From positions 1-45,771 of the IMG/VR virus record IMGVR_UViG_3300006114_000017: a stretch of DNA of 45,771 nucleotides. One strand, written 5' to 3'. Positions 2,797-36,051 of this stretch are shown here, one piece after another; position 1 is the first letter of the stretch; every line of letters starts with the position of its first letter. The stretch comes from a virus. Both the position numbers and the translations under genes were made by a program. Under the pieces are notes generated by a model. It had not been told where the DNA came from. It ran no database searches and saw only the letters and a program-made list of their open reading frames with translations.

Positions 2797-2797
2797 A

Positions 2798-3806: not shown

Positions 3807-3826
3807 CCGTAGTACGGTTGTTAAGA

Positions 3827-4837
3827 CTAAGCCTTAACGATCTTGCCCAGACCACGGGGGTTGAGAACGATCTCGGAAACGAGCTCGTCCATGACCCAAC
3901 CCTTGTGGAACTTCTCAGGCGTGTGGTTCTCTTCGACGTCGAGCGAGTACATGACGGGGAAGACACCGAGGAACTCGGGGCTTGGGGTCATGTAGACAGT
4001 ACCCTGAGGTACTTCGATCGAACGCTGAACTTGGAAACCACCGAATTGAACGATGCGCTCACCAGCAACAACACGGTCCTTGAAGGCCCAACCGGTCTGG
4101 TTGATGTCCCACTTGTAAAGGTCACGGTAGTCGAGTGGGTTGAACAACAGTCTCGAAGCTTCCAACTGGTGGACTTCGATGAGTGCAACGAGGTCGTACA
4201 GCGAGTCAGGGGTGATGTAACCCGAGAGCTCGTTAACGATGTGGTTGGGCGAAACTACGTGGTTGGGGTCAACGGCGTAGTTGTTGATGGCAGCTTCGAG
4301 GACCGTGATCAAACGGGCGTCTTCCTGCATCATGATTGCCTGCTTGGACATGTCCTGGGCGTACTCCACGATGTTTACGCGGAGGTACCACAAGTCTTCC
4401 TTCTTGATCTGAGGGAAGGTAGCGATACGGAACAAACGGACTGGAACCTTCTTACCTTCGAAGGGTGTCACACGGACTTCACCTTCGTTACCGGAAAGAA
4501 TGTAAGCCTGGCCGTACTCGTCGAGGACGTCGTACATGACAGGTACACCAGGGGTAAGCGGGTCTTCCAGGAGGACGTTACGGGTCATACCTTGGTAACG
4601 GAGCTTCAGCTGGATGGGACCGATCATACCCTGGCCCAAACGGACCATGTAGTTGTCCTTGTCGGCCAGAACACCGGCGAGGCGACGCTGCTTCTCTTCA
4701 CGAGTAGCAGTTACGCGGCCAGTTGCAGTCTTAAGACGGTCCTGAGCCTCAATGATACCGGCGACGTAGTCGTCCGACTTCTTGGCTGTGCGGGGAGCGA
4801 GGTGCTCAGCGACAGCGCCATTGGGAGTGATTGACAT
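3827..4837 (-). CDS. Putative major capsid protein (336 aa, HK97-fold candidate)
   Basis: Sits just downstream of the scaffold-like gene in the portal ... scaffold ... capsid order. The gene is markedly GC-rich with strongly biased 'highly expressed' codon choice (GGT, CGT, AAG, GAG, TAC), unlike its neighbours. SD 'AAGGAAA' precedes the ATG at 4835-4837. The fold assignment is inference, not demonstrated homology. Confidence 0.5.
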   Translation of the reverse strand: MSITPNGAVAEHLAPRTAKKSDDYVAGIIEAQDRLKTATGRVTATREEKQRRLAGVLADKDNYMVRLGQGMIGPIQLKLRYQGMTRNVLLEDPLTPGVPVMYDVLDEYGQAYILSGNEGEVRVTPFEGKKVPVRLFRIATFPQIKKEDLWYLRVNIVEYAQDMSKQAIMMQEDARLITVLEAAINNYAVDPNHVVSPNHIVNELSGYITPDSLYDLVALIEVHQLEASRLLFNPLDYRDLYKWDINQTGWAFKDRVVAGERIVQFGGFQVQRSIEVPQGTVYMTPSPEFLGVFPVMYSLDVEENHTPEKFHKGWVMDELVSEIVLNPRGLGKIVKA

Positions 4838-20042: not shown

Positions 20043-22491
20043 TTGCTGGCTCTTCTACCTTCGCTGGGCTAATGGACCAGCTATCCGTTTGGTGTGTTGG
20101 GAACTTAGAAACAGATTGCTTAAAAGTTTCTTTTGCTGCGGGGCCACTGAAACGTTCAATCTGTTCAGCTAACTTATTTGATGCCTTTGTAGCTTCTTCC
20201 ATGTTTCCATGAGAAATGTGCTTGTACAATTCATCCTTAGTTTGATTGTAACGTCCAGTTGATGCATCTGGCAATGAGTTAACAGTCTTTTCTACAGAAG
20301 ATACACCTTCACGCATGTGCTCCGGGAATGCTTCAGGGTCGTGCTGGAACGTGGGCTGAGCAGCTCTCATCTTACGCTCGACTTTGTTGCTCATGTATGG
20401 AGGCAGCAAGTCAGGGAATGTACCGAACTCTTTAGACACTTCCTTAACAAGAGCAAGGTCTTTTGATGGTGCTGTGTAATGAGCATTCGGTGCTTTCCAG
20501 TGCTGCTCACTTTGACGAACAATCTGGTTCATACGCTCTTCAGGAATGTCAATACCATTCTTCATCATTCCGCTAACAAGGCGCTGATCAAGTGGTGCAT
20601 CGCTCTTCATGTCTTCTACACTTGAACCAAGCTTGCCCTTGTATGTTTCCATAGTGGTCTGGCCAGTTGATGGGTCAATGTAATTAGGGAAGTGATCAAA
20701 ACTGTGAGGGTTATCTGCTGTTCCTAGGCCACCGTATTGATTAGCAAACACTGCTTGTACGTGTCTCTTAGGCAAGTAGAACCCTGGTTTGCCACCCTTT
20801 GTCCTAGCACCATGGATGATGCGAGTGCCTGGGGGCAATGTGTTTGGGTCTGCGGCGCTTCTGATGTGACATGGGCATGGCAAGTTAGTAGGTTTGCCAT
20901 CCTTATCGAACATCTCCTGGTCGTCATGCTCGCAGTTCTTGCAATCATCACGTCTCAAGTGTGAATAGTGGTCAACACCAGTATTACCAACACCAGTACC
21001 AGAAAGTGGCATGTTGATCTCTGCGTTGCCATAGAAATCATCTGCGTATCCGTGCGTAGGAGGCTTCTTCTTCTTAATTACCTTTGGACCATCTACTGTC
21101 TTATCGATCAGAGTACCATCGCAGTGTGGGCAAACGTTATCAGGTGTCAAGGCAATGCTTGAGTCATCTGAGTGGCAGTTGTCGCAACTGATAGCGGAAG
21201 TATCATGTCCAGTAGCGTTGCAAGCAACACATGGGGTTGACTTTGCACCATCTTCGGTGAACTTATCACCCTTGCAAATCTTGCAAAGAGGTGCATCTTC
21301 TGGATTAACGTACTTTTGCTTACCGCCACCAAGGCCAATAGTGTGAGGTACCAAGATGGGGTTACCAGCACTGTCCGTGCTTTCCTTCATGTTAACATTG
21401 CCCTTGAAACAGCAACGGCAACCTACGATGTTATCATTCTGGTTGGAATTGATTTTACCATCACCACATGCGCACGAAGGGTGCTCCTCATGTGTAGTAG
21501 TTTCCCAGTCTCCAACAGTCTGCTGACCAGCTTTAAGCGTCTCATATCTGGTGTAACGCTTTACATGATCTCCGCCAGGCGTAAAGTGGATCATAGGCAT
21601 ATAGGTGCCTTCTGGGCCACCTTCATCGAATGCATGAGCTAGCTCTACACTCTTTTGACCCTTGCCGTTATCTACTTCACGATATGCTTTAAGTAGCGGG
21701 TTCTGCAGGAGTCTTTCCTTGTAGCCGGGTGTTGTGCCATGAACCATCTGTGGCAGCTGCTCTGGTTCCTTGCCTTTAGGACCGTGTGGGACTTCACAAC
21801 CGTTCTCTGAGTCTCCGCCACAAACACAAAGGCTTCCACCTCTTTTGTATGGACCGGTGCCGAGAGCCATTGACATAAGGTGGTCGATTGCATCACCCTT
21901 GTGTGTAGCAATCGTATTTGCTACCGAATCAGGGTCTAGACTTTCAGTTTCTGCTCCAACACCACGTGCTCTTTGCTTCCTACCTTGCGCATTGGCACGT
22001 AATAGCTTATCAGTAGCAGTGCTAATGTTTTCGCCTTTTGCTCTGCGTCTGAAACCAATCATGCCATGCGGAGCAAGCTCGAGAAGCTTGTCAGCGTTTT
22101 CGTGTTGTGAGTACTGTGATCTAGGAATTCTAATCATCTTGTATTCACCACTGCGCATCAAGTCTTGCTTGAGCTCACGGGCGTAGTCACCACCACGTTC
22201 ATTTTCACCTGAATACTTAGGCAAGTCTTTGTGGATGAATTCGTAACGCTTAGGTTCTGCAGTTGGGTTGTTAATGGGGTGGTAGTCGTTGTCACCAAAT
22301 TGGATAGCAAAAGGGGCGTCATTGAATTCTTCAGCCTGGGTACGTCGCTTTTCGACAGACTTGCGCTTCTTTCTTGCTTCACTCTCAGCCTTTTGATATT
22401 CTCTCTGCTTCTTGTTTACAAAGATGCGATCATCGTTACTGGCGGAAGTCTTAACGTATTCTATGTTCTTATTAAAAACAAACTTATTCAT
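20035..22491 (-). CDS. Large hydrophilic Cys-rich protein (818 aa) with multiple CxxC clusters. Possibly a paralogue or partner of the 801-aa protein.
   Basis: ATG at 22489-22491. Motifs include CVCGGDSENGC, CACGDG..GCRCC, CKICKG...CVACN...CDNCH...CPHCDG, CKNCEH and CPCH. Confidence 0.5.
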   Translation of the reverse strand: MNKFVFNKNIEYVKTSASNDDRIFVNKKQREYQKAESEARKKRKSVEKRRTQAEEFNDAPFAIQFGDNDYHPINNPTAEPKRYEFIHKDLPKYSGENERGGDYARELKQDLMRSGEYKMIRIPRSQYSQHENADKLLELAPHGMIGFRRRAKGENISTATDKLLRANAQGRKQRARGVGAETESLDPDSVANTIATHKGDAIDHLMSMALGTGPYKRGGSLCVCGGDSENGCEVPHGPKGKEPEQLPQMVHGTTPGYKERLLQNPLLKAYREVDNGKGQKSVELAHAFDEGGPEGTYMPMIHFTPGGDHVKRYTRYETLKAGQQTVGDWETTTHEEHPSCACGDGKINSNQNDNIVGCRCCFKGNVNMKESTDSAGNPILVPHTIGLGGGKQKYVNPEDAPLCKICKGDKFTEDGAKSTPCVACNATGHDTSAISCDNCHSDDSSIALTPDNVCPHCDGTLIDKTVDGPKVIKKKKPPTHGYADDFYGNAEINMPLSGTGVGNTGVDHYSHLRRDDCKNCEHDDQEMFDKDGKPTNLPCPCHIRSAADPNTLPPGTRIIHGARTKGGKPGFYLPKRHVQAVFANQYGGLGTADNPHSFDHFPNYIDPSTGQTTMETYKGKLGSSVEDMKSDAPLDQRLVSGMMKNGIDIPEERMNQIVRQSEQHWKAPNAHYTAPSKDLALVKEVSKEFGTFPDLLPPYMSNKVERKMRAAQPTFQHDPEAFPEHMREGVSSVEKTVNSLPDASTGRYNQTKDELYKHISHGNMEEATKASNKLAEQIERFSGPAAKETFKQSVSKFPTHQTDSWSISPAKVEEPANE

Positions 22492-22493
22492 TA

Positions 22494-23276
22494 TTAACTT
22501 TCGTCTTCCTCGAGGTCATTAACATCGAACATTCTTTGTACCTTTGCCCCAGGTATATTAACTGTTGGTGTATTAGATGGTTGGTTACTTGGTGGCGTAG
22601 CTTCAGGAACTGTTTGAACCTTACGCTCTCTTCTCTTTGGCGTAGGTGTTTCATCGACTGGTGTCGTTGATTCCTCAGAGTTATAACCCTTAACCTTTGA
22701 CTTCGGCATCTTAATATCATGCTTTGGTGCTTCATCATCGGCAGATAAATAAGTAACACCTGTAGTTACTGTCTGATATGGTGTTGGTGTTGTAACTGGA
22801 GCATCGCTGTCTTGTATACCACGAGTTCTAGAACGTTCTTTGTTCCTAACAACTCGTCTCTTCGTTTCGCTCTTCAAGCTACTTACAGCACGCTCAGTCT
22901 TGTTAATGTTCCTATTTTCAATGCGTTGATCTGTCTTACCAGATTCGCCTGGGTTCAGACCAGATGGACGCTGGTTAGCAACAGCATGTTCCATCTCAAC
23001 GATTTCATTACCAACAAAAAGAGCATGGTTTGCGCATGTGTGAACCTGTGTCACTCCAGATGGAGTGTAAATGAATTCACCATCTTTGTTCTCTGCTACG
23101 CCACCACGCTCGTAGCTCTTAGCACCTTTTGCTCTAGCTTTCAAAGCTTTCCTAGAAGAACGCTGGATGCTATCGCACGGGCCCAGAGAATCATATTTCT
23201 TCGCTTGTTCTGGAGCTAAGCTATCTCTAAGATCAGCTATGCAGCAACGCTTTCCCATATTAACATGCGTATCCAT
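22494..23276 (-). CDS. Hypothetical basic protein (260 aa)
   Basis: ORF track. ATG at 23274-23276. Confidence 0.45.
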   Translation of the reverse strand: MDTHVNMGKRCCIADLRDSLAPEQAKKYDSLGPCDSIQRSSRKALKARAKGAKSYERGGVAENKDGEFIYTPSGVTQVHTCANHALFVGNEIVEMEHAVANQRPSGLNPGESGKTDQRIENRNINKTERAVSSLKSETKRRVVRNKERSRTRGIQDSDAPVTTPTPYQTVTTGVTYLSADDEAPKHDIKMPKSKVKGYNSEESTTPVDETPTPKRRERKVQTVPEATPPSNQPSNTPTVNIPGAKVQRMFDVNDLEEDES

Positions 23277-24505
23277 TATTGATCTCCCTTGCAGCGGTAA
23301 GACTCAGCAATAAATTTGTCAACACGGTCAAATTTATTGCCAGGGTAGCTATCTGGAAATGGAGCGGTTTTGATTTTAGCGATGCCACTCTTGTAATCAT
23401 CACTTTGCTTAATCTTGGAGATGTTTTCTGGTGTTTCAAAGCCTCTTCTTTTTTCACAACCACAAAAGACGTGTGACTCTTGCTTAGTAGGCGTTGAGGG
23501 TGTAGACGCAGGAAGCAATGCTTGCTCTTCTCTTTTTTGCCTTATTTGCTTTATTTCGTCGAAAGTGTCTTTGAAGGCACCTGCGTAACCAGTACCTTCT
23601 TGCTCTCCGCGTCTTACAAGCATCTTATTGATAGATTCAATGTTTTGACGACCCTTCATTGCAAGCACTCGGTCTTGACCCTGCACACCGTGTTCGGGGA
23701 TAGCAATGGTAGTCTTACGTGATGGTTTGCTAGCAGGCACTCTAGAAGTTCCAGAAGACGCGCTTGAGTCATCGTCTTCAAAGTCTTCTAACTCTGGTAC
23801 GTGTTCTTCTGGGGTTTCATCAGTGGGAGCAGACTTTGTCTTATTGAACTTCTTATTGACAGGTGGCAATGCCTGGATAGGAATACCCTTATCTTCTTCC
23901 TGATCACCTTCATGTTCTTCTTCGTGAGAAACATTCTCTGGGATTTCTTCTTCAGCTTCTTCAGCTTCGTGAGGAGATTCTTCTTCTGGGTGTCCAGGAA
24001 GCGTTTCAGGATCGTAAGTGAACTTACCTACTTGTTCTTCTTCAGCTTTCTCTTCATCATTGGGTTCTGTATCAACTTGTTCTGGCTCTTTGTCTTCAGT
24101 TGCATCAGACCATTCTTCCTGCTTGCCTTCGTAGTCATCAGGATCGTAATCGTCGCTAGAAGCGTTGAAAAGCATTTTGAATGTGGCTGTCTTGCCCAAA
24201 GATGGCAATGCAATAATATTTGCTTTTTTCAAGAACTCAATAGATTCAGGAGAATATTTGATCGTGCCAGGCGTTTGGCCCTGCTTATTCAAAATGTCTT
24301 TAAGAGCGTCTTCTTCGCTGGTATAAAGCTTTTTAGGCGTTGAAACTGACGTAGGAGCAGTAGGGTGCTCTGTTCTCTTATATTTTCTAGGCCCTGGTTC
24401 TTTTTGCCCTGATTGTGTGTTATCTTTTCTCAAATACCACTCAGGGTCTCCATTACTAATGGCACCCGTACCCGAAGAGTACTTAGAATTAAATGTTTTA
24501 GCCAT
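23276..24505 (-). CDS. Hypothetical highly acidic protein (409 aa). N-terminus is MAKTFNSKYSSG...
   Basis: ATG at 24503-24505. Glu/Asp-rich central region. Confidence 0.45.
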   Translation of the reverse strand: MAKTFNSKYSSGTGAISNGDPEWYLRKDNTQSGQKEPGPRKYKRTEHPTAPTSVSTPKKLYTSEEDALKDILNKQGQTPGTIKYSPESIEFLKKANIIALPSLGKTATFKMLFNASSDDYDPDDYEGKQEEWSDATEDKEPEQVDTEPNDEEKAEEEQVGKFTYDPETLPGHPEEESPHEAEEAEEEIPENVSHEEEHEGDQEEDKGIPIQALPPVNKKFNKTKSAPTDETPEEHVPELEDFEDDDSSASSGTSRVPASKPSRKTTIAIPEHGVQGQDRVLAMKGRQNIESINKMLVRRGEQEGTGYAGAFKDTFDEIKQIRQKREEQALLPASTPSTPTKQESHVFCGCEKRRGFETPENISKIKQSDDYKSGIAKIKTAPFPDSYPGNKFDRVDKFIAESYRCKGDQ

Positions 24506-25230: not shown

Positions 25231-25314
25231 TGGTCGATGGGGAGAGATTCGAACTCCCGTACCCGAAGGATCTGGTTTACAGCCAGACGCGATTGGCCAC
25301 TCCGCCACCCATCG
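25231..25314 (-). tRNA. tRNA-Tyr (anticodon GTA), type II with a long variable arm. CCA is encoded.
   Basis: Hand-folded cloverleaf: acceptor CGATGGG/CCCATCG, 3-bp D-stem, anticodon stem TCTGG/CCAGA with loop CTGTAAA, long variable arm, T-arm GGGAG-TTCGAAT-CTCTC. Confidence 0.7.
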
Positions 25315-25319
25315 ATTTG

Positions 25320-25390
25320 CTGAGGGAGAAGGACTCGAACCTTCAACAAAAGCTCCAAAGGCTCCCGTGTTGCCATTACACCATCCCTCA
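25320..25390 (-). tRNA. tRNA-Gln (anticodon TTG)
   Basis: Acceptor TGAGGGA/TCCCTCA, anticodon loop CTTTGGA, T-arm GAAGG-TTCGAGT-CCTTC. The anticodon stem has two G-U pairs. Confidence 0.6.
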
Positions 25391-25412
25391 ATGTTTATTG
25401 CATGGCATGCAG

Positions 25413-25499
25413 CGGAATGAGTAGGATTCGAACCTACGGAGGCTTTGATACCTCGCCGGTTTAGCAAACCGGTGCTTTCGACCACTCAGCCATCATTCC
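25413..25499 (-). tRNA. tRNA-Ser (anticodon GCT), type II with a long variable arm
   Basis: Acceptor GGAATGA/TCATTCC, anticodon stem CCGGT/ACCGG with loop TTGCTAA, long variable arm, T-arm GTAGG-TTCGAAT-CCTAC. Confidence 0.65.
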
Positions 25500-25504
25500 T
25501 TATG

Positions 25505-25576
25505 CTCCCAGGGTAGGGATCGAACCTACGACCGAGCGATTAACAGTCGCTTGCTCTGCCGCTGAGCTACCTGGGA
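25505..25576 (-). tRNA. tRNA-Asn (anticodon GTT)
   Basis: Acceptor TCCCAGG/CCTGGGA, D-loop AGCTCAGCGGCAGAGC, anticodon stem AGCGA/TCGCT with loop CTGTTAA, T-arm GTAGG-TTCGATCCC. Confidence 0.7.
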
Positions 25577-25584: not shown

Positions 25585-25941
25585 CTAGTCTCCTTTGACC
25601 ACTCTGATACTATCATAGTCGAAGTGTTGGGTAGAGAACTCAAATACGCGTGAATTCTCTAGACCAATGATTCTGTGACGTAAACCGACAGGTACGTGGA
25701 AAAGGTCTCCCGCATTAAGCACCTTTTCCTGTGCGAGCTCGATATCGTCTGTCTCACCGTAAAGTACGATGACCTTACCGTTCTCTACGTAGAAGGTTTC
25801 GTCCTTGATGTTGTGATAATGGTAAGAAAGCTTCTTACCCTTATTCATGTGCAAGATCTTGGCGCAGTACTTCTCAGAGTTACAAAGAATCTCTTCATAA
25901 CCCCAGCCCTTTTCTACAAATTCCTTATTCAAAGAAGTCAT
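25585..25941 (-). CDS. Small cupin-fold sugar-phosphate isomerase-like protein, with the pattern of the type II phosphomannose-isomerase C-terminal cupin (118 aa)
   Basis: Pattern WG.E..L.....Y..K.L......LS.H.H....E...V..G...V ... VP.G..HR is typical of PMI-type cupins. The ORF tool starts at GTG 25944. The ATG at 25941 is preceded by an AAGGAA SD. Confidence 0.5.
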   Translation of the reverse strand: MTSLNKEFVEKGWGYEEILCNSEKYCAKILHMNKGKKLSYHYHNIKDETFYVENGKVIVLYGETDDIELAQEKVLNAGDLFHVPVGLRHRIIGLENSRVFEFSTQHFDYDSIRVVKGD

Positions 25942-26242
25942 CACTGTTTATTCCTTTGTCATCGATGTAAAAATCAGCAGAAGGTTTACCCATGATTAGA
26001 TGATGGTACTTACAACCCCATTGCTTAAGCTGACGCTCCGTAATGTCACGGAAAAGTATTTCTACAAGCTTTGGGTCATTATTTGTCCTATGCATACCTC
26101 GAGCCGTAAAATAAACGACTGTATGACCCTCTGAATAAAGCTTGTTTATCTGATCAATACGTTCTTGAACAGGCAGTGCATTTTCATACTTACCATCAGT
26201 AAGTGTGCAGATGGTGCCATCAATATCTACAACGTATCTCAT
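25925..26242 (-). CDS. Small HAD-superfamily phosphatase (105 aa). Proposed GmhB-like heptose-1,7-bisphosphate phosphatase role.
   Basis: HAD motif I VDIDGTI, motif II FTAR, a Lys in GKPS, and motif IV YIDDK. The pathway role comes from gene context only. Confidence 0.45.
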   Translation of the reverse strand: MRYVVDIDGTICTLTDGKYENALPVQERIDQINKLYSEGHTVVYFTARGMHRTNNDPKLVEILFRDITERQLKQWGCKYHHLIMGKPSADFYIDDKGINSDDFFE

Positions 26243-26628
26243 CGTTCTAAGATCCTAGTGGTTGAATAAGGCTCAAGTCTAGTGAAATAATCAATCTTCT
26301 TTGCGTACTCTTTACCAGGGAAGTCCTTGCCGAACCAGTCAGCACCAGCAAACCAGATATCTGGGGATAAAGCCTTGACGATATTGATCAGTTCTTCATC
26401 TGAGTCAAAGAGTAGCGTTTGATCAACATACTTAAAAGCATCAATAACAAATTGTCTATCATACTGATTATGGAAAGGTCGATCAGAGCCTTTCTTCTCT
26501 TTTACACGCCTATCAGTGTCGATAGCAACAGTTAGGGTGTCACCATGCGATTTGGCATGTTTTAGAAGTGCTACATGGCCTTTATGAATGACATCAAACG
26601 TGCCAGTTAAAAAGATCTTCTTATCCAT
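26239..26628 (-). CDS. hldC: D-glycero-beta-D-manno-heptose-1-phosphate adenylyltransferase (HldC / HldE domain II-like cytidylyltransferase fold)
   Basis: FLTGTFDVIHKGHVALLKHAK...GDTLTVAI.TDRRVKEKKGSDRP...VD.TLLF..D...I.....PDIWF.GADW parallels E. coli HldE domain II (GVFDILHAGHVSYL..ARKLGDRLIVAVNSD..TKRLKGDSRP...). The HxGH nucleotidyltransferase motif is present. Confidence 0.7.
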   Translation of the reverse strand: MDKKIFLTGTFDVIHKGHVALLKHAKSHGDTLTVAIDTDRRVKEKKGSDRPFHNQYDRQFVIDAFKYVDQTLLFDSDEELINIVKALSPDIWFAGADWFGKDFPGKEYAKKIDYFTRLEPYSTTRILER

Positions 26629-27406
26629 TTAGATACTCGTCTACAGTCTTGAATTTGTAGTCACCCCACTCTGGCTTAGCACAGGTATACGTCTGATACT
26701 TGCCAACCAGGTGTTCTGGGAACGGTACATATTCTATAGCACCGTTATAAAGGTATGCAACTGACTCAGCAACGTCTTTAAAGCTAATTGGGTTGCTTGT
26801 GCCAAGATCATAGATGCCAGAAGGCTTATCGTTGTTGAGAACGATTTCAACAAGGTCATCAACGCAGACAAAGTCTCTCTTGAAGTTCTCTGAGCCTTCA
26901 AACAGCTTTAGAGAGCCTGTCTCTTTAATTTGGGCTGAGAACTTGCTAACAGGGCTTGCCTGGTCACCTTTACGGCCTTCATAATCACCATATACGTTGA
27001 AGTAACGAAAACCTTGGATAAGAGAGAACTTATCCATGTTATCTTGCACCCAGTAGTCAACTGTCAGCTTTGACATAGCATATTGGTTCTTAGGGTTAGG
27101 AATACCCTGCAAATCGCCATAAACGGAAGCAGAAGAAGCATACTTAACAGGGATACCAAAAGAGATAGCAATCTCAAAGAGGTCTATCGTGTATTCAACG
27201 TTCCAGGCATACAGTTTCTTAACATCCTTTTCAGTAGTGCTGGAGATAGCACCCTGGTGCAAAATAAGATCAACTTTATCCCATTCTTTAAAGTTATAAA
27301 GGAAGTGATAAGCATCTTCTTTATCAATAGGCAATAAAGGCTTGTTAGAAAGAACCTTGCTAAAGTTTCTACCAATGAAACCTTCTGAACCAGTCAAAAT
27401 GATCAT
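26621..27406 (-). CDS. hldD: ADP-L-glycero-D-manno-heptose 6-epimerase (HldD/RfaD-like SDR)
   Basis: [14 protein letters not shown]... shows the N-terminal Rossmann motif. [27 protein letters not shown] and [20 protein letters not shown] are near-identical to conserved HldD segments ([50 protein letters not shown]). Confidence 0.8.
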   Translation of the reverse strand: [261 protein letters not shown]

Positions 27407-28131
27407 ATCGTTGTAACCCCTCTATGCTTTACCACTTCAGAAGCGCATTTATTAGCATACTCAATGCTTTTGATGATATTGCCGCAATTAGCATACTCAA
27501 CGACAAGTGCTGCCATGAAAGCATCGCCTGCACCTGAGGAGTCCTTGACTTCTACCTTGTCAACGTGATAACGGTTACCGTTGTACTCGCAACCATCTCC
27601 ACCCATCGTATGGATGATCTTCTTCTTGAAAGATTCTGTAACTTTGGGGTCAGAGTTCTTGTATTCGTAATCGTTGATCTTAATGATGAAAGCCTTTTTG
27701 GCCCACTTCCCTAGCTTCTTCTTAGTATCGAGGAATACACGTGGGTGTGACTTACAAATATCTTTGATGTCGTCTTCTGTTAGATAACCTTTGTTATAGT
27801 CAGAAATAACTACAATGTCATATTCGCTGTAATCGATATCGTTTTTAAACCTACCATAGTTTGGCTCTGTATCGACTCTAATAAACATGTGGTTAGTTGC
27901 TTCATGAACGTATCTTGTCTTAGTAATAGACCGCCAATTATGGTTGGTTCTAATGTTGACGTCATCCGCAAACTTTTTGATGTTGTTTAACACGTTCAGT
28001 GCCATACCAGGATTCTTTACCTCATGCATGGCGTTTAGCACAGGTACTGGAATATCGGGTGCAAGACGCATTGCATCACAATAAACAAATACGTCCATGC
28101 AACTTTCACCTATTACTAAAATTTTAGTCAT
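27403..28131 (-). CDS. hldA: D-beta-D-heptose-7-phosphate 1-kinase (HldA / HldE domain I-like, PfkB ribokinase family)
   Basis: ILVIGESCMDVFVY matches VMVVGDVMLDRYWY. PVPVLNAM...NPGMALNVLNNIKKF matches PVPVVKV...RPGGAANVAMNIASLG. PfkB signature GAGDAFMAAL...ANKCASEVV matches GAGDTVIGVL...ANAAAGVVV. Confidence 0.7.
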   Translation of the reverse strand: MTKILVIGESCMDVFVYCDAMRLAPDIPVPVLNAMHEVKNPGMALNVLNNIKKFADDVNIRTNHNWRSITKTRYVHEATNHMFIRVDTEPNYGRFKNDIDYSEYDIVVISDYNKGYLTEDDIKDICKSHPRVFLDTKKKLGKWAKKAFIIKINDYEYKNSDPKVTESFKKKIIHTMGGDGCEYNGNRYHVDKVEVKDSSGAGDAFMAALVVEYANCGNIIKSIEYANKCASEVVKHRGVTTI

Positions 28132-28613
28132 TAGAAAATAGGTAAGCCATCTTTTTTAAGATAGATCATGGCAGGGGCCTTGATCAAATATGCATCAATC
28201 ATAGCCTTTTCTGTAGCTTCACGGCTAGTAGGAAAGTAACTTTGTACATTTTTGAATACCGTAGCTAAGCGTTCAGGGTTGAGCGGACGGTGAGTAGGAC
28301 CATGCGTTGGATAATCAGAATAACCAACCAACATAACAGGCAAGTTTTGTTCATCAATATCAATTTTGACTTGCTCATAAGGTCGTTCGATTACAAAAGG
28401 AGTAATTGAATAAACTACTGGACGAAACCCATCGATAGCAAGACCAGCAGCCAAGCTAGTAATTGATTGCTCAGTGAGACCAAGGTTGAAGAACCGTTCA
28501 GGAAACTTTTCTTTGAACTCAGTCATCTCTTGCTCTACGTCGCCTGTAATCAATACGATGCGATCATCTTTTTCAGCGAGCTTAACGATTGTCTTACCGA
28601 ATGCTACTCTCAT
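28131..28613 (-). CDS. Transketolase C-terminal (pyrimidine-binding, Pyr-domain) subunit. Short, about 160 aa.
   Basis: GLTEQSITSLAAGLAIDGFRPVV...F matches the transketolase/DXS Pyr-domain consensus. Start moved to ATG 28613 (MRVAFGK), which forms an ATGA overlap with the upstream subunit stop. The typical C-terminal domain appears absent. Confidence 0.55.
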   Translation of the reverse strand: MRVAFGKTIVKLAEKDDRIVLITGDVEQEMTEFKEKFPERFFNLGLTEQSITSLAAGLAIDGFRPVVYSITPFVIERPYEQVKIDIDEQNLPVMLVGYSDYPTHGPTHRPLNPERLATVFKNVQSYFPTSREATEKAMIDAYLIKAPAMIYLKKDGLPIF

Positions 28614-29335
28614 GCCAGTTCCTCCAATGCTTGCTTTTCTAGGTCTCCACCTAGCCAATTTGAGTGCCATTTAGGTTGGTTTTCCATAAAGCTTACACCC
28701 TTACCCTTGATTGTGTTTGCAACAATCAAAGTAGGAGATACTGCAGCTTCAAAATTGATGTTGATAAGATCATCGTTGTGACCATCAATTTCATGCACTT
28801 CCCAACCAGCAGCTTGTGCAGCAGCAATAAGAGCACGGTCTACGGGCATGATTTCGTCAACGTACCCAGAACCCTGGATCTTATTGTTATCTACGATAAC
28901 AACCAAGTTATTGAGCTTTAGGCGTGCAGCAATAAGAATTGATTCCCAAGTAGTGCCTTCTTGGCATTCGCCATCACCCATAAGAACAAACACTTTTTCA
29001 TTTGAGTTGTTGAGCTTACGAGCAAGAGCCATCCCCATAGACACTGGGAAACCATGTCCCATGCTACCTGCGGTGCAATAAATGCCATTCTCAGGCTCAT
29101 AATGAGGGTGACCTTCAAGGGTGGGGTTATAACCTTGTTCACGCAAAAGCACATAGTATGACCAGCAGCTGTGCCCCTTGCTCAAAACAAAACGGTCATT
29201 CTTTCCCATGATTTTATCAAAAAGATTGATCAGAATTTCAGTACAACTAAAGCTACCGCCATAATGATAACCACCATTAGCTTTGCTAATCTCAATAGCA
29301 TCTCTGCGTACTTGCTTTGATCTTTCGTTTAACAT
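28610..29335 (-). CDS. Transketolase N-terminal (thiamine-diphosphate-binding) subunit
   Basis: GHSCWSYY, GSMGHGFPVSMGMALA, GDGECQEGTTWESILIAARLKLNNLVVIVDNNKIQ (the TPP-binding GDG-x25-N motif) and KGKG are present. ORF-tool start is TTG 29362. The ATG at 29335 overlaps the upstream stop (TAATG). Confidence 0.65.
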   Translation of the reverse strand: MLNERSKQVRRDAIEISKANGGYHYGGSFSCTEILINLFDKIMGKNDRFVLSKGHSCWSYYVLLREQGYNPTLEGHPHYEPENGIYCTAGSMGHGFPVSMGMALARKLNNSNEKVFVLMGDGECQEGTTWESILIAARLKLNNLVVIVDNNKIQGSGYVDEIMPVDRALIAAAQAAGWEVHEIDGHNDDLININFEAAVSPTLIVANTIKGKGVSFMENQPKWHSNWLGGDLEKQALEELA

Positions 29336-29901
29336 TAATTGGCCTTTCCAGATAGATTGCAAATTAGAATTTTTTTATCTTCATCGTAATCAAACTCACA
29401 TGCGTTGTCATACTCTTTAATATAGTTAATTAATTTTTGCTTTGTAGTTTCTTCATCACCAAAATCAAGAGCCATACCACTAGAAGAATCACCAAGCAGA
29501 TCAATATCATCAATCAGAATAGTGTGAGCTTTGCGAGGGCGAGCAAAGATTACGTTTAACTCATCCATCAAAGGAACTGCTGGGTGTTCTACATTCGGGT
29601 CACCGCTTGCGCTGTGAGCATCGAGCCAGAAATCTAGCGGGACATCATAAGGCTCAATCATCTCTGATAATTTTTCTTTTGAGTCGCCTAGAAATAACAC
29701 TACTCTGTTGTCATTATCAAACTTGCTACAACAATTATCGTAGAAAGATTTATTGAACTCAACAGTTATAACCTTTTCATAACCAAGACCAAGTGCTATT
29801 TCTACTGTATAGCCATGTTGTGTACCAGTTTCTACAAAGATATTATTTCTCTTATATTTAGAGAACATCAATGTCATTGCTTCTGTGCTTCTATCTGCCA
29901 T
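29335..29901 (-). CDS. Putative class I SAM-dependent methyltransferase (188 aa). Sugar O-methyltransferase is a candidate function.
   Basis: Gly-rich motif-I-like VETGTQHGYTVEIA is followed by an acidic residue at the end of beta-2 (EKVITVEF). No SIS motif is present, so it is not GmhA. Family assignment is tentative. Confidence 0.3.
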   Translation of the reverse strand: MADRSTEAMTLMFSKYKRNNIFVETGTQHGYTVEIALGLGYEKVITVEFNKSFYDNCCSKFDNDNRVVLFLGDSKEKLSEMIEPYDVPLDFWLDAHSASGDPNVEHPAVPLMDELNVIFARPRKAHTILIDDIDLLGDSSSGMALDFGDEETTKQKLINYIKEYDNACEFDYDEDKKILICNLSGKAN

Positions 29902-30911
29902 TATTCCATCTCAATCATTATTCTACCGGCAATGCCGCTTCTAAGTGTATCAAATGCTTCATTTACTTCGTCAAGTTTATATCTGTGAGTAATGAACTCA
30001 TCAATATAAAGCTTCCCAGCCTTCTCGAGCTTAACATAACGCAAGATATCGTTAGAAGGATCTGTCTTGCCACCCTGGGTAGCCTTGATACTAAGACCAT
30101 TACCATTAAAGAAGCTGAGTGCATTGACGATTTCAAGTGACGTTCCTGGCTTGGGTTGACCCACAAGAATCATTCGGCCATTGTTAGATAGATAGCCAAA
30201 GCTCTTCTTAATAACATCGACGTTTCCAGTCGTATCAATAACAACGTCTACTTTACCTTCAAACTCTGTTTCTGAAGTGTTGTAAAAGAAGTCAGCACCA
30301 GCCATGAATGAAAGGTCGCGCTTGCTTTCATTGTTGTCAATAGCAACAATTGGGCTAAGGCTACGCATAGCTGCACCTTGGATGAGGTTAAGCCCTACAC
30401 CACCCGTACCGACAACTGCAACGCTTTCACCAAACTTAAAATCGCACTCATTGTCGATAATACCTAGTGCGGTAGTCAAACTGCATCCAAGGAGCGCAGC
30501 GAGGTCATTAGGGGTCTCTGAAGGGACTGTAGTGAGTCGGTTCTCTGACACGATAGCCCACTGAGCAAGAGTATTTACCTTGCCACTACTAAAAGTCTTG
30601 TCACCAAGGGTGTACTGAGGAAACGCAGCATCGATACCAGTACCTGGTCGCCAGTGCATAACAACCTTGTCACCTACTTTAACAGTGGTTACTCCAGGGC
30701 CAATGTCTTCTACAATGCCACAACCCTCATGACCCATAAGGTGAGGAAGGAACTTGCCATTACCCTTGTTGCCATTGATCTCGTGTAGTTGTGAGCCACA
30801 GATACCGCTGACAAGGACACGAACCTGTACTTGACCCACTTGGAGCTCAGTAAGGCCAACATCTTCAATAGAAAGAGGAGCGTTGAGCTCTTTGAGAACG
30901 GCAGCCTTCAT
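29901..30911 (-). CDS. Zinc-dependent medium-chain alcohol/polyol dehydrogenase (MDR family)
   Basis: GHEGCG catalytic-zinc motif, GxGxxG NAD-binding motif (VVGTGGVGL), and the ~335 aa length typical of threonine/sorbitol dehydrogenase-like MDRs. Confidence 0.65.
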   Translation of the reverse strand: MKAAVLKELNAPLSIEDVGLTELQVGQVQVRVLVSGICGSQLHEINGNKGNGKFLPHLMGHEGCGIVEDIGPGVTTVKVGDKVVMHWRPGTGIDAAFPQYTLGDKTFSSGKVNTLAQWAIVSENRLTTVPSETPNDLAALLGCSLTTALGIIDNECDFKFGESVAVVGTGGVGLNLIQGAAMRSLSPIVAIDNNESKRDLSFMAGADFFYNTSETEFEGKVDVVIDTTGNVDVIKKSFGYLSNNGRMILVGQPKPGTSLEIVNALSFFNGNGLSIKATQGGKTDPSNDILRYVKLEKAGKLYIDEFITHRYKLDEVNEAFDTLRSGIAGRIMIEME

Positions 30912-31759
30912 TAGATCAACTCGTACAATGACTTGACGGTGCTGAACTTCTTATTGATGTCAAATGTTCTAGCCATATCACGGTAAGGAACATTTGTATT
31001 AACTCGGTCAAGCAGAGAGATGAACTCACCAACCGTTTCCATGCTCCACTTGTTAACAGCAGCAATGAAAGGTGCATTTGGTACGCCAACAACTGCCTTA
31101 CAACGCTTAGCTAGCTTACCAATATCAACCAAAGTCAAATTGTGATCTTGAGTGCTGCGGTAGCCTTCCACCTTGACAGTAGTAATGACTTTCTTACCCT
31201 CATCGGTCAAGTATTGCAGCAATGCAGCAAAGTTCTTGTCTTGTTCTTCTCTAGACATAAGAAGGACTGGGCTAACAGGGTATCCATTAATTACTAGGCA
31301 GTCAAACTCTTCGCCATCGAGTACATCCTCGGCAAAGCACTCTTCATCAAGTACAACATCATCAATAGAGTTGAATGGCTTGTTTAGGTGAGGCAAGTTG
31401 TACTGGTGCAGGTAGTTACCCATTTCATATACCCACATTGAGTAGCTGCTAAGGGTGTTGTCCTGCTTCGAGTAGTGGATAGGATCATAAATGCTATCGC
31501 CAAGCAAAGCGTGGCACCACAAGTCAATTGAATAACGTGGGTGTGGTGCATCAATAAAGCTTACGTTTGTATCTTGGATCAGCTCAACAAGTTGAGAACG
31601 ATACTGAGCAGGAATTAAGATGTTGCATTTAATTTGTTTGTTGTTTTCACACAACTTCTTCAAAACATGCAATGCAACAATGCAATCACCATGGCCTTTA
31701 TCACAATGGAAGTAAAGGTCGTTAGTCATTAACATATCTAAGTTAATTGATTTATTCAT
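30911..31759 (-). CDS. Putative GT9-family (heptosyltransferase-like) glycosyltransferase
   Basis: N-terminus ...GHGDCIVALHVLKKL resembles the GT9 N-terminus (xSSLGDVIhTLPAL). C-terminal ...LTLVDIGKLAKRCKAVVGVPNAPFIAAVN resembles GT9 ...LxELAALIxxAxLxIGNDSGPMHLAAA. The start is uncertain: the ORF-tool GTG at 31795 overlaps tRNA-Asp. The first ATG (31759) lies 3 nt from the tRNA 3' end, and later ATGs lie at ~31735 and ~31729. Confidence 0.45.
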   Translation of the reverse strand: MNKSINLDMLMTNDLYFHCDKGHGDCIVALHVLKKLCENNKQIKCNILIPAQYRSQLVELIQDTNVSFIDAPHPRYSIDLWCHALLGDSIYDPIHYSKQDNTLSSYSMWVYEMGNYLHQYNLPHLNKPFNSIDDVVLDEECFAEDVLDGEEFDCLVINGYPVSPVLLMSREEQDKNFAALLQYLTDEGKKVITTVKVEGYRSTQDHNLTLVDIGKLAKRCKAVVGVPNAPFIAAVNKWSMETVGEFISLLDRVNTNVPYRDMARTFDINKKFSTVKSLYELI

Positions 31760-31761
31760 AG

Positions 31762-31835
31762 CGACCTTGATGGGACTCGAACCCACGACCCCCACCGTGA
31801 CAGGGTGGTGCTCTAACCAACTGAGCTACAAGGCC
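31762..31835 (-). tRNA. tRNA-Asp (anticodon GTC)
   Basis: 5'-GGCCTTGTAGCTCAGTTGGTTAGAGCACCACCCTGTCACGGTGGGGGTCGTGGGTTCGAGTCCCATCAAGGTCG. Anticodon stem CCACC/GGTGG with loop CTGTCAC. T-arm GTGGG-TTCGAGT-CCCAT. Confidence 0.7.
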
Positions 31836-32371: not shown

Positions 32372-32920
32372 TCAATTATTTGGCAATTCTGTCAAAATAT
32401 TGAAAGAAGCAGCAAGATCAGCTGGCATCATTTGGTAAGGGTTGCGGTCGAATACAATGCCGCCTGCCCACAAGGATTGTGCTACTACGGCACTACAAAT
32501 CATGGTGTTGCTATTTGTGAACTGCATCTTAATACCAGTCAGCAACTCCAAGGCAATACTCAAGATGGTTAGGAAACCATACTTATCCTTAATGAAGCTC
32601 TTGCAAGCAGAAACCGTTTGATCACGGCTTTGCTTGTTAAGCTTTGTTGTAACGTAGTAATACTCTACGTCTTTGTATTCACTAATGTTGCTTACGATAA
32701 CACCACGGCCAACAGCCTCAACGATGGTTCCACCTTCATCGATGATCATAGCTGCATGGTTCCAATGAGCAAAAGGCTTCATCTTTCCGTGGTAACGGAT
32801 GAATTGACCAAAACGAATGAACTTAGCTAGAATGCCCTTAGATGAAACCAGGATGAAGTCACCTGGTACATACTTTGTTGGGTCTTGTCCTGCGGCATAT
32901 ACCTTATATGTCGTAGTCAT
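32372..32920 (-). CDS. Permuted NlpC/P60 (YaeF/YiiX-like) papain-fold peptidase. Candidate endolysin or peptidoglycan endopeptidase.
   Basis: The His motif HWNHAAMII precedes the Cys motif NTMICSAVVAQS. This is the circularly permuted His-then-Cys order seen in the YaeF/LRAT branch. Assigned from the motif pattern only. Confidence 0.35.
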   Translation of the reverse strand: MTTTYKVYAAGQDPTKYVPGDFILVSSKGILAKFIRFGQFIRYHGKMKPFAHWNHAAMIIDEGGTIVEAVGRGVIVSNISEYKDVEYYYVTTKLNKQSRDQTVSACKSFIKDKYGFLTILSIALELLTGIKMQFTNSNTMICSAVVAQSLWAGGIVFDRNPYQMMPADLAASFNILTELPNN

Positions 32921-33968: not shown

Positions 33969-34835
33969 CTACATACGCGGATACTTGAGCTTTTTAAACC
34001 GTTCGAGGCTCATTCCCTCATATCTACGGCACAAAGAGTCAAGTGAAATCTGCTGGATGTCATAACTACCGTTTTGGACACCATGCTTAACGACAATACC
34101 TCTAAAGTGAGCATTGCCTTGTGGTCCCTTGTAGTTTTCATCGTGCAGGTAACAAGCACCGGCTACAAGGCCATGCTGTGAGAACGCATCATTCTCATCT
34201 CTTCCACCATTTACGTAACGCATGCCATAAAGGAACGTTTGTTGGTGACCCATAGTAAATGAGTGGCCGATATTCTTCAGACGAGCATCAATCGTACCAC
34301 CATAGGGGTTTCCCGTCATAGGGTTATAAAAGAAGTGACTGTAAGCTACACCATCAAGCCAAAGAATGTGCTTGAATGGGCTAACTCTCCAACCGCTACG
34401 GGCATAGTCAAGGTCATCTGTGCTAAATAGGCCATCAATCTGTGCATCCATCTCTGTTGCACGGTTGATACGATCTTCGTGGTTACCAAGAAGAATGTGA
34501 CGCTCTGGGTTCCAGATAGCATGCTTAGACTTACGCTTGTTTTCGTTATAGTCATAAAGAGGCTGGTTTAGGATGTGCCAGTGTTCATTGGCAGCTTCAA
34601 TGTCTGCTTTGACACGACGACCCTCCATGCTCTTCTTACCCTTATCGTACATTGAAAGGGCTGGCATATCAGCGTGGTCACCAAGGTGAATGATCTTCAC
34701 ATCTTGGTTGTGGAACTCTTCTACAATATAGTTACCGATCCAAGTGAGGTGGTCGGTTGGGACCCCATCTTTAGCTTGGGTGTCCGGGATAACGATGTGT
34801 GTTGCTGGGTCTTTCTCGACAGAGCTATTCGTCAC
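33969..34835 (-). CDS. Calcineurin-like metallophosphoesterase (288 aa)
   Basis: Ordered metallophosphatase motifs IVIPDTQ, IIHLGDHAD and LLGNHEDRI, plus later His residues (GHQQ, HGL). Confidence 0.6.
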   Translation of the reverse strand: MTNSSVEKDPATHIVIPDTQAKDGVPTDHLTWIGNYIVEEFHNQDVKIIHLGDHADMPALSMYDKGKKSMEGRRVKADIEAANEHWHILNQPLYDYNENKRKSKHAIWNPERHILLGNHEDRINRATEMDAQIDGLFSTDDLDYARSGWRVSPFKHILWLDGVAYSHFFYNPMTGNPYGGTIDARLKNIGHSFTMGHQQTFLYGMRYVNGGRDENDAFSQHGLVAGACYLHDENYKGPQGNAHFRGIVVKHGVQNGSYDIQQISLDSLCRRYEGMSLERFKKLKYPRM

Positions 34836-35299: not shown

Positions 35300-35566
35300 T
35301 TAGTTAGCTTTGTAAGCTACAAGTGCCAAGTTCTTTAGGCACTCTTCTGGGGTGATCCCATTTACGCTTGATAGTTTATTGATAAACACCATCATAACAC
35401 CAGCAAGTGAGCTGAAGAGTTGGATGGGATCACTCTCGAGGACCATTTCATAAGCTAGTTCCTCTTGGCCGCTGATGATTGCTGTCATCAAAGCGACTAC
35501 GTTGCCAATGTTCTCTGTTACAGAATCCATTATGCCTCGGTAGACGCCTTCAAGAACCAACTCCAC
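35300..35566 (-). CDS. Small hypothetical protein (88 aa)
   Basis: ORF track. Confidence 0.35.
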   Translation of the reverse strand: MELVLEGVYRGIMDSVTENIGNVVALMTAIISGQEELAYEMVLESDPIQLFSSLAGVMMVFINKLSSVNGITPEECLKNLALVAYKAN

Positions 35567-36051
35567 TTTTGGTGTTGATCAATGCGTTCAGCAATGAAGT
35601 TTGCAATACCTTGCTCGTTATCTTTGTCAGCAAGAACAAAGACCTTTTTAATGTGATCAATGTATTCGTTATTCATATCTAAGAATTGCTTAGCAAGATT
35701 ACGTGCATCATCATCGTTAGAACCTACTTCTTTAATTCTACTAAGTCCAGACAATTGGCTCATTACAAAAGGAGCTTTAGCATCAAGCTTTCTGATGTTT
35801 TCTGCAATTGGGTCAATGTTTTCGTAGATATCATCTACGATCTCATCAAAGAACTTGTGATATTGATAGAAGTCATTACCAACAACATTCCAGTGGAAAC
35901 CATGAATAGTGTGATAGAGAACGTATGCTTCAGCAAGCATTCTTTTCAGAGCAGTGACCAAATCACTAACATCTTCTTCATATTCTGGGTTTCTAGTGTC
36001 GTCTTCTACTTCTGTTGCACTGACGACTCTAAAGCCATTCCAATTGTCCAT
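35530..36051 (-). CDS. Dps/ferritin-like protein (DNA-protection-during-starvation family; 173 aa)
   Basis: The ferroxidase-site motif block ...YHTIHGFHWNVVGNDFYQYHKFFDEIVDDI... matches the Dps signature HWNVxGxxFxxLHxxFEE. The length is right for a Dps four-helix bundle. Confidence 0.55.
   Translation of the reverse strand: MDNWNGFRVVSATEVEDDTRNPEYEEDVSDLVTALKRMLAEAYVLYHTIHGFHWNVVGNDFYQYHKFFDEIVDDIYENIDPIAENIRKLDAKAPFVMSQLSGLSRIKEVGSNDDDARNLAKQFLDMNNEYIDHIKKVFVLADKDNEQGIANFIAERIDQHQKWSWFLKASTEA

Follow-up and report, generated by a model that had tools for sequence, protein, structure and literature searches.

A predicted two-domain transketolase-family gene pair in a phage sugar island and its candidate role in sugar tailoring

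Introduction

The only split-gene transketolase to have been reconstituted and solved is that of Carboxydothermus hydrogenoformans (ChTK; 6YAK/6YAJ). Both of its chains are needed for activity and assemble into an alpha2-beta2 tetramer, and the enzyme is the only transketolase of the organism, with no full-length gene present. Here we describe a gene pair, named TKN and TKC, in a stretch of viral DNA of 45,771 nucleotides (IMG/VR record IMGVR_UViG_3300006114_000017, positions 1 to 45,771), which is referred to as the window. The pair is predicted to encode a miniature transketolase-family enzyme dependent on thiamine diphosphate (ThDP), which consists of PP and Pyr domains only and lies in a sugar gene island.

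Two further groups of enzymes are relevant for the comparison. For miharamycin and amipurimycin, a 2025 review describes split-gene transketolases as proposed to transfer a hydroxyacetyl group to a keto sugar, the keto group of which would first be introduced by an oxidoreductase; neither step was shown in vitro. The same review lists 13 further split-gene transketolase candidates, all from Streptomyces and uncharacterised. In O-antigen synthesis, YerE and YerE-like enzymes branch CDP-3,6-dideoxy-4-keto-D-glucose. For all characterised sugar-branching ThDP enzymes (YerE-like; alpha-keto acid dehydrogenase type), the donors are 2-keto acids. A study of SAR11 myophages noted rfaE and other lipopolysaccharide genes and no transketolase, and our literature searches found neither a phage transketolase together with heptose genes nor a 'sporadic carbohydrate cluster'.

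Results

Gene pair and domain content

The two genes are located as follows:

28610..29335, minus strand: TKN, 241 aa, start codon ATG at 29335..29333; predicted ThDP-binding PP subunit
28131..28613, minus strand: TKC, 160 aa, start codon ATG at 28613..28611; predicted Pyr subunit without C-terminal domain

The start codon of TKC overlaps the TGA stop codon of TKN (28612..28610) in an ATGA junction, with a GGAGG motif about 8 nt upstream of the TKC start. The start codon of TKN, in turn, shares one base with the stop codon of an upstream gene for a 188-aa protein (TAATG). A program-made list of open reading frames (ORFs) gives a longer form of TKC (179 aa, from position 28670). Homologues begin at a conserved 'MR..FG', which is also the start in public gene calls on identical contigs from JGI and ENA metagenome assemblies (160 aa), so that the 160-aa form is regarded as the real product.

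In Pfam, TKN matched Transketolase_N (PF00456) with an E value of 2.5e-28 over model positions 17-266 of 334. TKC matched only Transket_pyr (PF02779; 1.4e-18, model positions 5-171 of 174), and neither protein gave a Pfam match to Transketolase_C (PF02780). Among structures, the best matches were the N chain of ChTK for TKN (6YAK, 1.2e-44) and, by sequence, its C chain for TKC (6YAJ, 1.8e-16). The AlphaFold model of TKC forms one complete Pyr domain, with a mean predicted local distance difference test score (pLDDT) of 87.9, and can be superposed in full on domain II of DXS as well as on the 6YAJ beta chain (TM score about 0.85). A separately encoded C-terminal domain was found neither in the window, where the best tblastn match reached an E value of only 0.015 over 27 aa, nor in 50 related viral loci (tblastn, E<=1e-3).

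Nearly all of the best 120 of 604 TKC homologues have a length of exactly 160 aa. When 1.84 billion cluster representatives were searched, the best TKC matches were almost all about 150-175 aa long or fragments; ordinary C subunits of 300-315 aa ranked after the short forms and were 36-41% identical to TKC. The preserved length of the homologues indicates that the shortness of TKC is a conserved property and no truncation artefact. On a 12-kb contig of a JGI metagenome (P0124), both minimal halves are fused into a single chain of 427 aa, the Pyr part of which (residues 271-425) is 54% identical to TKC of the window and is not followed by a C-terminal domain.

Based on domain matches, lengths and the model, TKN and TKC are predicted to form a miniature (241 + 160 aa) transketolase-family ThDP enzyme of PP and Pyr domains only. 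By analogy with the solved split transketolase, the assembly is presumably an alpha2-beta2 tetramer. An earlier note on this DNA had described split, translationally coupled subunits, the second of about 160 aa and restricted to the Pyr domain. Both descriptions agree with the present results, and adjacent genes for the two domains were found again in viral and cellular loci.

Active-site residues

Residues are numbered according to TktA of E. coli, with reference sequences from the MG1655 record; Arg358 and the Asp381/Ser385 region were placed by their spacing to Asp381 and by HMMER alignment to 6YAJ. Equivalents of Asp155 and Asn185, from the GDG...N diphosphate/metal motif, were present in 29-30 of 30 family members, and those of His26, His66, His100, His261 and His473 in 28-30 of the 30 sequences. 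Glu48 of TKC corresponds to Glu411, which serves in cofactor activation, and is invariant in the family. Asp25 (Asp381, likewise conserved in the family) and His108 (His473) are kept in TKC as well.

Of the four sugar-phosphate ligands, only Arg358 is unchanged (Arg2 of TKC, invariant). The loop of Ser385 is two residues shorter in TKC and lacks the Ser, His461 falls in a three-residue deletion, and Arg520 is replaced by Lys154, with Lys in 19, Arg in 7 and Asn in 4 members of the family. Asp469, the ligand of the acceptor C2 hydroxyl, is His104 in TKC; across 30 loci this position is occupied by His (25), Leu (2), Gln (2) or Tyr (1). In contrast, the proven transketolases TktA and ChTK retain 'TH..GEDG' and all of the ligands that are changed here. 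In the nearest long relatives, the position of His461 is Gly in 76 of 79 sequences and Asp469 is mostly absent too. Mutagenesis of the yeast and E. coli transketolases established that such residues determine how tightly phosphorylated sugars and 2-hydroxy aldehydes are bound. As judged from the alignments, the catalytic ThDP machinery is intact, but the distal part of the substrate pocket does not correspond to a pentose-phosphate enzyme.

An annotated split 'transketolase' of Salmonella enterica subsp. houtenae (locus L143, SEHO0A_03133/03132) was considered as a canonical outgroup and rejected, since it has the same non-canonical residues as TKC. With the equivalents of His461 and Asp469 missing, this pair is probably not a standard transketolase either. 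It adjoins a putative transcriptional regulator, for which the sole similarity note refers to glycerone (dihydroxyacetone) kinase.

Related viral and cellular loci

The viral set consisted of 50 IMG/VR loci with a TKN identity of 40-70%, of which 38 were left after dereplication. The recurring core of the 50 loci comprises a short-chain dehydrogenase/reductase (SDR), a Zn-dependent alcohol dehydrogenase (ADH), in part of the loci an unassigned protein of 250-270 aa, TKN and TKC; ADH is located upstream of TKN in 41 of the 50. ADH is the most constant partner and was present in 29 of the 38 dereplicated loci; SDR was present in 25, and 18 encode the unassigned protein. Kinases or nucleotidyltransferases of the heptose type were found in 12 of these loci and in none of the other 26 (up to 20 kb of fetched DNA). 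Many viral loci without heptose genes carry GT9-domain proteins, together with weak sulfotransferase matches below the cut-off, near genes that resemble head/capsid genes on inspection of the sequence. By Pfam and hhalign, neither viral family F4, encoded between ADH and TKN, nor the 188-aa protein of the window could be tied to FkbM-type methyltransferases, and the two could not be tied to each other.

Sequence inspection showed that an ADH-TKN-TKC-SDR block adjoins head/capsid-like genes in several loci (L007, L009, L011, L033, L035, L043 and others). The contigs of the L007 type, presumably from tailed phages, also encode a large methyltransferase/GT9-domain protein and a weakly sulfotransferase-like protein. 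From this neighbourhood, the target of modification might be the virion itself and not the host envelope.

For the cellular set, one genome per species was scanned, which yielded 79 loci. The minimal pair (about 250 + 160 aa) was detected in SAR11 single-cell genomes, Chlorobium (including cultured C. phaeovibrioides), DPANN, the candidate phyla radiation (CPR), Anaerolineales and others; some of the single-cell contigs could be phage DNA. Frequent neighbours in the 79 loci are a GalE-like epimerase (61), a radical S-adenosylmethionine (SAM)/SPASM protein (39) and a 221-aa methyltransferase (39), followed by ADH (18) and SDR (17). A '2OG-Fe(II) oxygenase of the sporadic carbohydrate cluster' (2OG, 2-oxoglutarate) also occurs next to the pair and matched TIGR04324 at 1.6e-94.

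Pairing and translational coupling of TKN and TKC are conserved across phages, bacteria and archaea. In a rough neighbour-joining tree, the viral and cellular pairs with short C subunit form one group, which is sister to glycan-cluster pairs with a C subunit of about 310 aa; both are separate from E. coli TktA and from DXS. Based on this placement, the loss of the third domain seems to have taken place in a lineage that was by then devoted to glycan clusters. The tree and gene contexts thus suggest that TKN and TKC belong to a distinct clade dedicated to glycan and nucleotide-sugar gene clusters.

When the island DNA was compared with known phages, only a tRNA match was obtained. A tblastn search of a phage collection returned matches of at most 40% identity, mostly on bacterial or unannotated contigs.

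Interchangeable oxidising partners

Partner genes were counted in the dereplicated loci with sufficient flanking DNA, 83 for a distance of three genes and 67 for a distance of five. Within three genes of the pair, 33 of the 83 loci had only ADH, 32 only radical-SAM/SPASM genes, 6 only the 2OG oxygenase (TIGR04324) and 12 none of them; a combination of these classes did not occur. Within five genes (n = 67), the numbers were 26 for ADH, 28 for radical SAM, 8 for 2OG and 4 for none, with all three found together in 1 locus. The mutual exclusion of ADH and radical SAM yielded a p value of 2e-10 in Fisher's test on the pooled loci, which is overstated because the loci are phylogenetically related.

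When three unrelated enzyme classes replace one another, the simplest view is that they have one task in common. What they share is the ability to oxidise C-OH or C-H to a carbonyl. The radical-SAM and 2OG partners oxidise, so that ADH probably acts in the oxidising direction as well and would provide the electrophile for the ThDP enzyme. Among the related loci (L001-L135, e.g. L069, L102, L075 and L107), those with radical SAM often carry two or three such genes, in place of which ADH loci have ADH together with SDR.

Nearest relatives with full-length C subunit

Loci L141 and L142 share the gene order RfbH/DdhC (727 bits), FNR-like reductase, glucose-1-phosphate cytidylyltransferase (411 bits), CDP-glucose 4,6-dehydratase (493 bits), SDR, TKN, TKC (311 aa), GT2 and GtrA, without heptose genes. 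The scores of RfbH/DdhC, the cytidylyltransferase and the 4,6-dehydratase are all above the respective cut-offs. By annotation, these genes form the whole pathway to a CDP-3,6-dideoxy-4-ketohexose, which YerE uses as the acceptor for branching. By analogy, the long TKN/TKC pair would thus occupy the position of YerE in yersiniose synthesis. A shorter version of this arrangement is present in L136.

In L138, a nucleotidyltransferase-like gene, an epimerase and a radical-SAM gene are followed by TKN, TKC, a methyltransferase and a SIS isomerase. The order in L140 is SIS isomerase, epimerases, nucleotidyltransferase-kinase, ADH, TKN, TKC (314 aa), methyltransferase and SDR. According to its gene content, L140 appears to be a heptose-type cluster, but with a full-length C subunit.

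Sugar island of the window

The window is phage DNA, as it encodes a portal protein (8e-165) and a virion structural protein (2e-246). TKN and TKC are the fourth and fifth genes of an uninterrupted string of ten minus-strand genes (25585..31795). Every junction is an ORF overlap; at the junctions examined base by base, stop and start codons were found to share either one base (TAATG) or four (ATGA). The other genes and the borders of the island are, in the order of transcription:

31761..31835, minus strand: tRNA-Asp, upstream border (ARAGORN)
30911..31795, minus strand: first gene, protein of 291-294 aa without family match
29901..30911, minus strand: Zn-dependent medium-chain ADH (Pfam ADH_N, ADH_zinc_N)
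29335..29901, minus strand: 188-aa protein between ADH and TKN, class I SAM-dependent O-methyltransferase fold, assigned at fold level only
27403..28131, minus strand: PfkB-family sugar kinase, heptose-7-phosphate kinase-like (PF00294)
26621..27406, minus strand: SDR of 261 aa, ADP-glycero-manno-heptose 6-epimerase-like (TIGR02197, 2e-60)
26239..26628, minus strand: nucleotidyltransferase of 129 aa, heptose-1-phosphate adenylyltransferase-like (TIGR02199 rfaE_dom_II, 1.2e-28)
25925..26242, minus strand: HAD-type phosphatase of 105 aa (TIGR01689 capsule biosynthesis phosphatase, 6e-12)
25585..25944, minus strand: cupin of 119 aa (Cupin_2, 1e-7; MannoseP_isomer, 0.0019)
25231..25576, minus strand: four tRNAs (Tyr, Gln, Ser, Asn), downstream border (ARAGORN)

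The ADH is most similar to class I and class III alcohol dehydrogenases among PDB entries (about 1e-35); the stretch between residues 92 and 112 of those enzymes is absent from it. The 188-aa protein had no match in Pfam or NCBIfam. Its AlphaFold model (pLDDT 89.8) gave TrmR and cation-dependent catechol/caffeoyl-CoA O-methyltransferases as top Foldseek matches (E about 1e-8, TM about 0.6). The protein of the first gene had no family match in the Pfam and NCBIfam scans, and the only relative found is encoded beside the pair in locus L060 (25% identity, 6e-9). A function as transferase (glycosyltransferase) would be a guess. The ORF starts with GTG at 31795 and overlaps tRNA-Asp, which makes a start further inside the ORF probable; in public gene calls, the protein has 291 or 282 aa.

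The kinase gene overlaps TKC in a TAATG junction, and the statement of the earlier note that the pair adjoins a heptose-7-phosphate-kinase-like gene was thus borne out. Its best NCBIfam match is rfaE_dom_I (1.5e-27), with 96.6 bits against a cut-off of 345. The corresponding scores are 204.6 bits (cut-off 274.6) for the epimerase, 99.8 bits (181.5) for the nucleotidyltransferase, which had glycerol-3-phosphate cytidylyltransferase as second match (1.4e-20), and 45.6 bits (162) for the phosphatase. All four of these heptose-type proteins have heptose or capsule enzymes as best NCBIfam matches, score below the cut-offs and are shorter than the models. No SIS-type sedoheptulose-7-phosphate isomerase GmhA was found in the window by tblastn with GmhA-like proteins from related loci. 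The heptose island assumed in the earlier note is therefore recognisable from its best matches, but not confirmed at the level of the cut-offs, and it lacks GmhA.

The cupin is weakly similar to the C-terminal domain of type II mannose-6-phosphate isomerase and co-occurs with nucleotidyltransferase, phosphatase and kinase genes in viral loci. Going by this similarity, it may be a ketose-aldose isomerase that replaces GmhA without being homologous to it.

Nearly all of the island enzymes are shortened. The kinase has 242 aa compared to 315 model positions, the epimerase 261 compared to 316, and TKN 241 compared to about 270; the phosphatase (105 aa), nucleotidyltransferase (129 aa) and cupin (119 aa) are short as well. 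ORFs of equal length near 1357-4837 were considered as a second copy of island genes and rejected, being unrelated.

Within the island region, a DNA match to known phages was obtained for the tRNA-Asn stretch alone (92.6%, to two Synechococcus phages). Just upstream of the island are a ferritin/Dps-like gene at 35530..36051 (PF00210, public gene calls), a metallophosphoesterase gene at 33969..34835 (phrog_221, 5e-41) and, at 32372..32920, a gene whose product weakly matches the permuted papain-like amidases (Peptidase_C92, 1.6e-4). Two further proteins without PHROG match were observed, one of 818 aa that is rich in Cys-x-x-Cys motifs (20035..22491) and one of 409 aa that is very acidic (23276..24505).

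Discussion

Proposed function and alternatives

We give an even chance to the view that TKN/TKC is the dedicated carbon-carbon ligase of a sugar-tailoring cassette and places a two-carbon unit onto a sugar carbonyl. In the first step, the Zn-dependent ADH would oxidise a hydroxyl group of a sugar intermediate to the carbonyl. The substrate would most likely be ADP-heptose, supplied by the adjacent cupin, kinase, phosphatase, nucleotidyltransferase and epimerase. TKN/TKC would then move the two-carbon unit from a donor onto this carbonyl. With a ketone as acceptor, the result would be a two-carbon-branched heptose, and with an aldehyde a chain-extended heptose (nonose). The 188-aa methyltransferase-fold protein would tailor the product, in most relatives together with a short-chain reductase, before the sugar is transferred to a surface glycan of phage or host. 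We infer which way the ADH works, what serves as acceptor and as donor (a ketose phosphate, hydroxypyruvate or pyruvate), and where the product ends up as well as its nature. The pair itself is a natural domain-minimal member of a transketolase-like clade, for which the chemistry was proposed elsewhere. More tentatively, and in our view rather doubtful, a widespread 'oxidise, then ligate' cassette might exist. Its ligating half would be a natural two-domain transketolase that acts on nucleotide sugars and builds sugars with more carbons or with a two-carbon branch, such as a C9 or C2-branched heptose; its oxidising half would interchangeably be a Zn-dependent dehydrogenase, a radical-SAM enzyme or a 2OG oxygenase. 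With such a cassette, SAR11, green sulfur bacteria, DPANN, CPR and their phages would diversify surface or virion glycans.

The earlier note had instead proposed that the pair supplies sedoheptulose-7-phosphate (S7P) from host pentose phosphates. In this reading, it would be a minimal but ordinary transketolase, and S7P or a similar ketose phosphate made from sugar phosphates of the host would be converted to ADP-heptose by the neighbouring isomerase, kinase, phosphatase and nucleotidyltransferase. Direct coupling of TKC to the heptose-7-phosphate-kinase-like gene is in line with this, as is the fact that all catalytic His residues are kept. DPANN and CPR carriers often do not have a full pentose-phosphate pathway, which would also fit. 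Several observations that count in favour of S7P supply at the same time weaken the ligase proposal. TKC retains Arg358 and, at position 520, a basic residue, so that a phosphorylated substrate would still be compatible with the pocket. In the cellular set, a fused HldE-type nucleotidyltransferase-kinase is present in 41 of the 79 loci and a GmhA-like isomerase in 14; these frequent neighbours would fit a role that feeds the heptose pathway.

Further points weigh against the ligase proposal on their own. The Salmonella pair has the same non-canonical residues in a non-glycan context, so that the residue signature alone is no proof of a glycan role. The context argument from L141 rests on relatives that are only 35-40% identical, ORFs were called and families clustered by simple heuristics, and the relatedness of the loci inflates the significance of partner exclusion. 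The window itself is without the SDR reductase that most relatives carry.

Despite these points, S7P supply is no longer the best reading and appears unlikely, because the substrate ligands are changed, 26 of the 38 viral loci have no heptose-activation gene and the long relatives are found in CDP-hexose clusters without heptose genes. Of the changed ligands, the His461 and Ser385 loop equivalents are lost and Asp469 is replaced by His, whereas proven transketolases keep all three. Across the relatives, oxidoreductases rather than heptose genes are the constant partners, and an ordinary transketolase would leave the ADH, radical-SAM or 2OG partners, the SDR and the methyltransferase without a role. 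SAR11 and Chlorobium would normally have a housekeeping transketolase, and should already own this activity. The changed substrate ligands and the oxidoreductase partners speak for the ligase instead.

A variant of the ligase proposal keeps the branching or extending role and assumes DXS- or YerE-like chemistry, with decarboxylation of pyruvate and transfer of an acetyl (hydroxyethyl) group instead of glycolaldehyde. Comparison of TKC with NCBIfam yielded a slightly higher score for DXS (TIGR00204, 66 bits) than for transketolase (NF004559, 60 bits), and the top Foldseek matches of its model are DXS. By sequence and fold, the Pyr domain is about equally similar to both. The use of 2-keto acids by all characterised sugar-branching ThDP enzymes also agrees with a pyruvate donor. 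For TKN, however, the affinity to transketolase is clear. Against PDB entries it scored 155.8 bits to the split transketolase 6YAK compared to about 43 bits to DXS, and in NCBIfam 182 bits to transketolase compared to 45.6 bits to DXS. Both the latter value and that of TKC are below the TIGR00204 cut-off of 466, which applies to a full-length model. According to the alignment, TKN lacks the long insertion that follows the NDN motif in DXS, and TKC has Arg at the position of Arg358, where E. coli DXS has Ser. The earlier note had named alignment to DXS as a check; the outcome is transketolase-like for TKN and about evenly divided for TKC. A reliable residue that separates transfer of glycolaldehyde from that of acetaldehyde was not found. 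The His100 column was dropped as discriminator, since the DXS alignment is ambiguous there ('GLHPFP' could align its His). A weak TPP_enzyme_C match is located inside the PP domain of TKN (2.2e-9) and the architecture is transketolase-like; the single chain of TPP_enzyme N, M and C domains that is typical for YerE-like decarboxylases was not found in TKN/TKC. Overall, we consider pyruvate chemistry improbable, more so than S7P supply.

The pair could also act in the cleaving direction and remove a two-carbon ketol from an ADH-made ketose, which would shorten the sugar or release glycolaldehyde. Transketolase chemistry is reversible, and an oxidising partner could create the 2-keto group that is needed in the donor. 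Such a function would leave it unexplained what the conserved SDR and an acceptor are for, has no known precedent in glycan clusters, and is difficult to reconcile with relatives that follow makers of 4-keto sugars, since a transketolase donor has a 1-hydroxy-2-keto group that is absent from such sugars. We therefore regard cleavage as very improbable. A decaying or non-catalytic remnant, as might be suggested by the missing domain and the several substrate ligands that were lost, is the least credible reading in view of hundreds of homologues with conserved length and start, invariant cofactor and catalytic residues, pairing and coupling maintained in phages, bacteria and archaea, and a confident and complete model of the Pyr domain.

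Significance

If the prediction is correct, TKN/TKC would be the first natural transketolase-family enzyme of PP and Pyr domains alone, with about 400 aa compared to 620-680 aa. The third domain would then be dispensable in nature, and biocatalysis of carbon-carbon bonds would gain a very small scaffold. Should the ligase role be true, it would be a tractable entry to the proposed transketolase-type transfer of two carbons onto an oxidised sugar, and would point to branched or extended sugars on abundant marine bacteria and their phages. Surface glycans decide phage recognition and superinfection exclusion. The pair is probably more than an 'auxiliary pentose-phosphate gene', and the function given in the earlier note is probably wrong. 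Caution is thus advised in viromes, where such genes should not be counted as pentose-phosphate 'auxiliary metabolic genes'.

Comparison with known systems

ChTK and TKN/TKC have the catalytic His residues, Glu411 and Arg358 in common, and in the window PP and Pyr are likewise encoded by adjacent genes. The C chain of ChTK comprises 312 aa, with Pyr at 1-162, followed by the C-terminal domain at 164-312, whereas TKC of the phage ends at 160 aa. His461, Asp469, the Ser385 loop and Arg520 are retained in ChTK and were lost or changed in the phage family. The phage pair is found in a glycan island, while ChTK is the sole transketolase of its organism.

DXS has a Pyr domain that is as similar to TKC as that of transketolase. 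Unlike TKN/TKC, it consists of one chain, which includes a C-terminal domain and, within PP, a long insertion.

For the partner enzymes, precedents exist in other pathways, namely in oxidise-then-ligate steps of antibiotics with high-carbon sugars. The Zn-dependent dehydrogenase NeoA and the radical-SAM dehydrogenase BtrN both make a carbonyl on a sugar or cyclitol, and the 2OG dioxygenase LipL feeds the transaldolase LipK, so that the carbonyl is then used for a carbon-carbon bond. Like the three partner classes described here, NeoA, BtrN and LipL turn a C-OH or C-H of a sugar or cyclitol into a carbonyl. Since their pathways, substrates and ligating enzymes are different, they are a precedent for interchangeability only.

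YerE, known from yersiniose and erwiniose, is comparable in position, as the long relatives of TKN/TKC hold the equivalent place after ddhA-D-type genes and before a reductase. It is a member of another ThDP superfamily, that of the decarboxylases, consists of one chain, has 2-keto acid donors and shows no homology beyond the PP/Pyr fold. The resemblance to YerE is thus functional only.

The closest parallel in logic is the miharamycin and amipurimycin type, compared here by description, in which a split transketolase acts after a carbonyl-making oxidoreductase in a sugar cluster, as proposed for ADH-TKN-TKC. In the window, the split genes are indeed located near an oxidoreductase in a sugar cluster, with ADH, the methyltransferase-fold gene, TKN, TKC and heptose genes in succession. 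Those enzymes belong to antibiotic clusters of Streptomyces, whereas TKN/TKC is found in glycan clusters of phages and marine bacteria.

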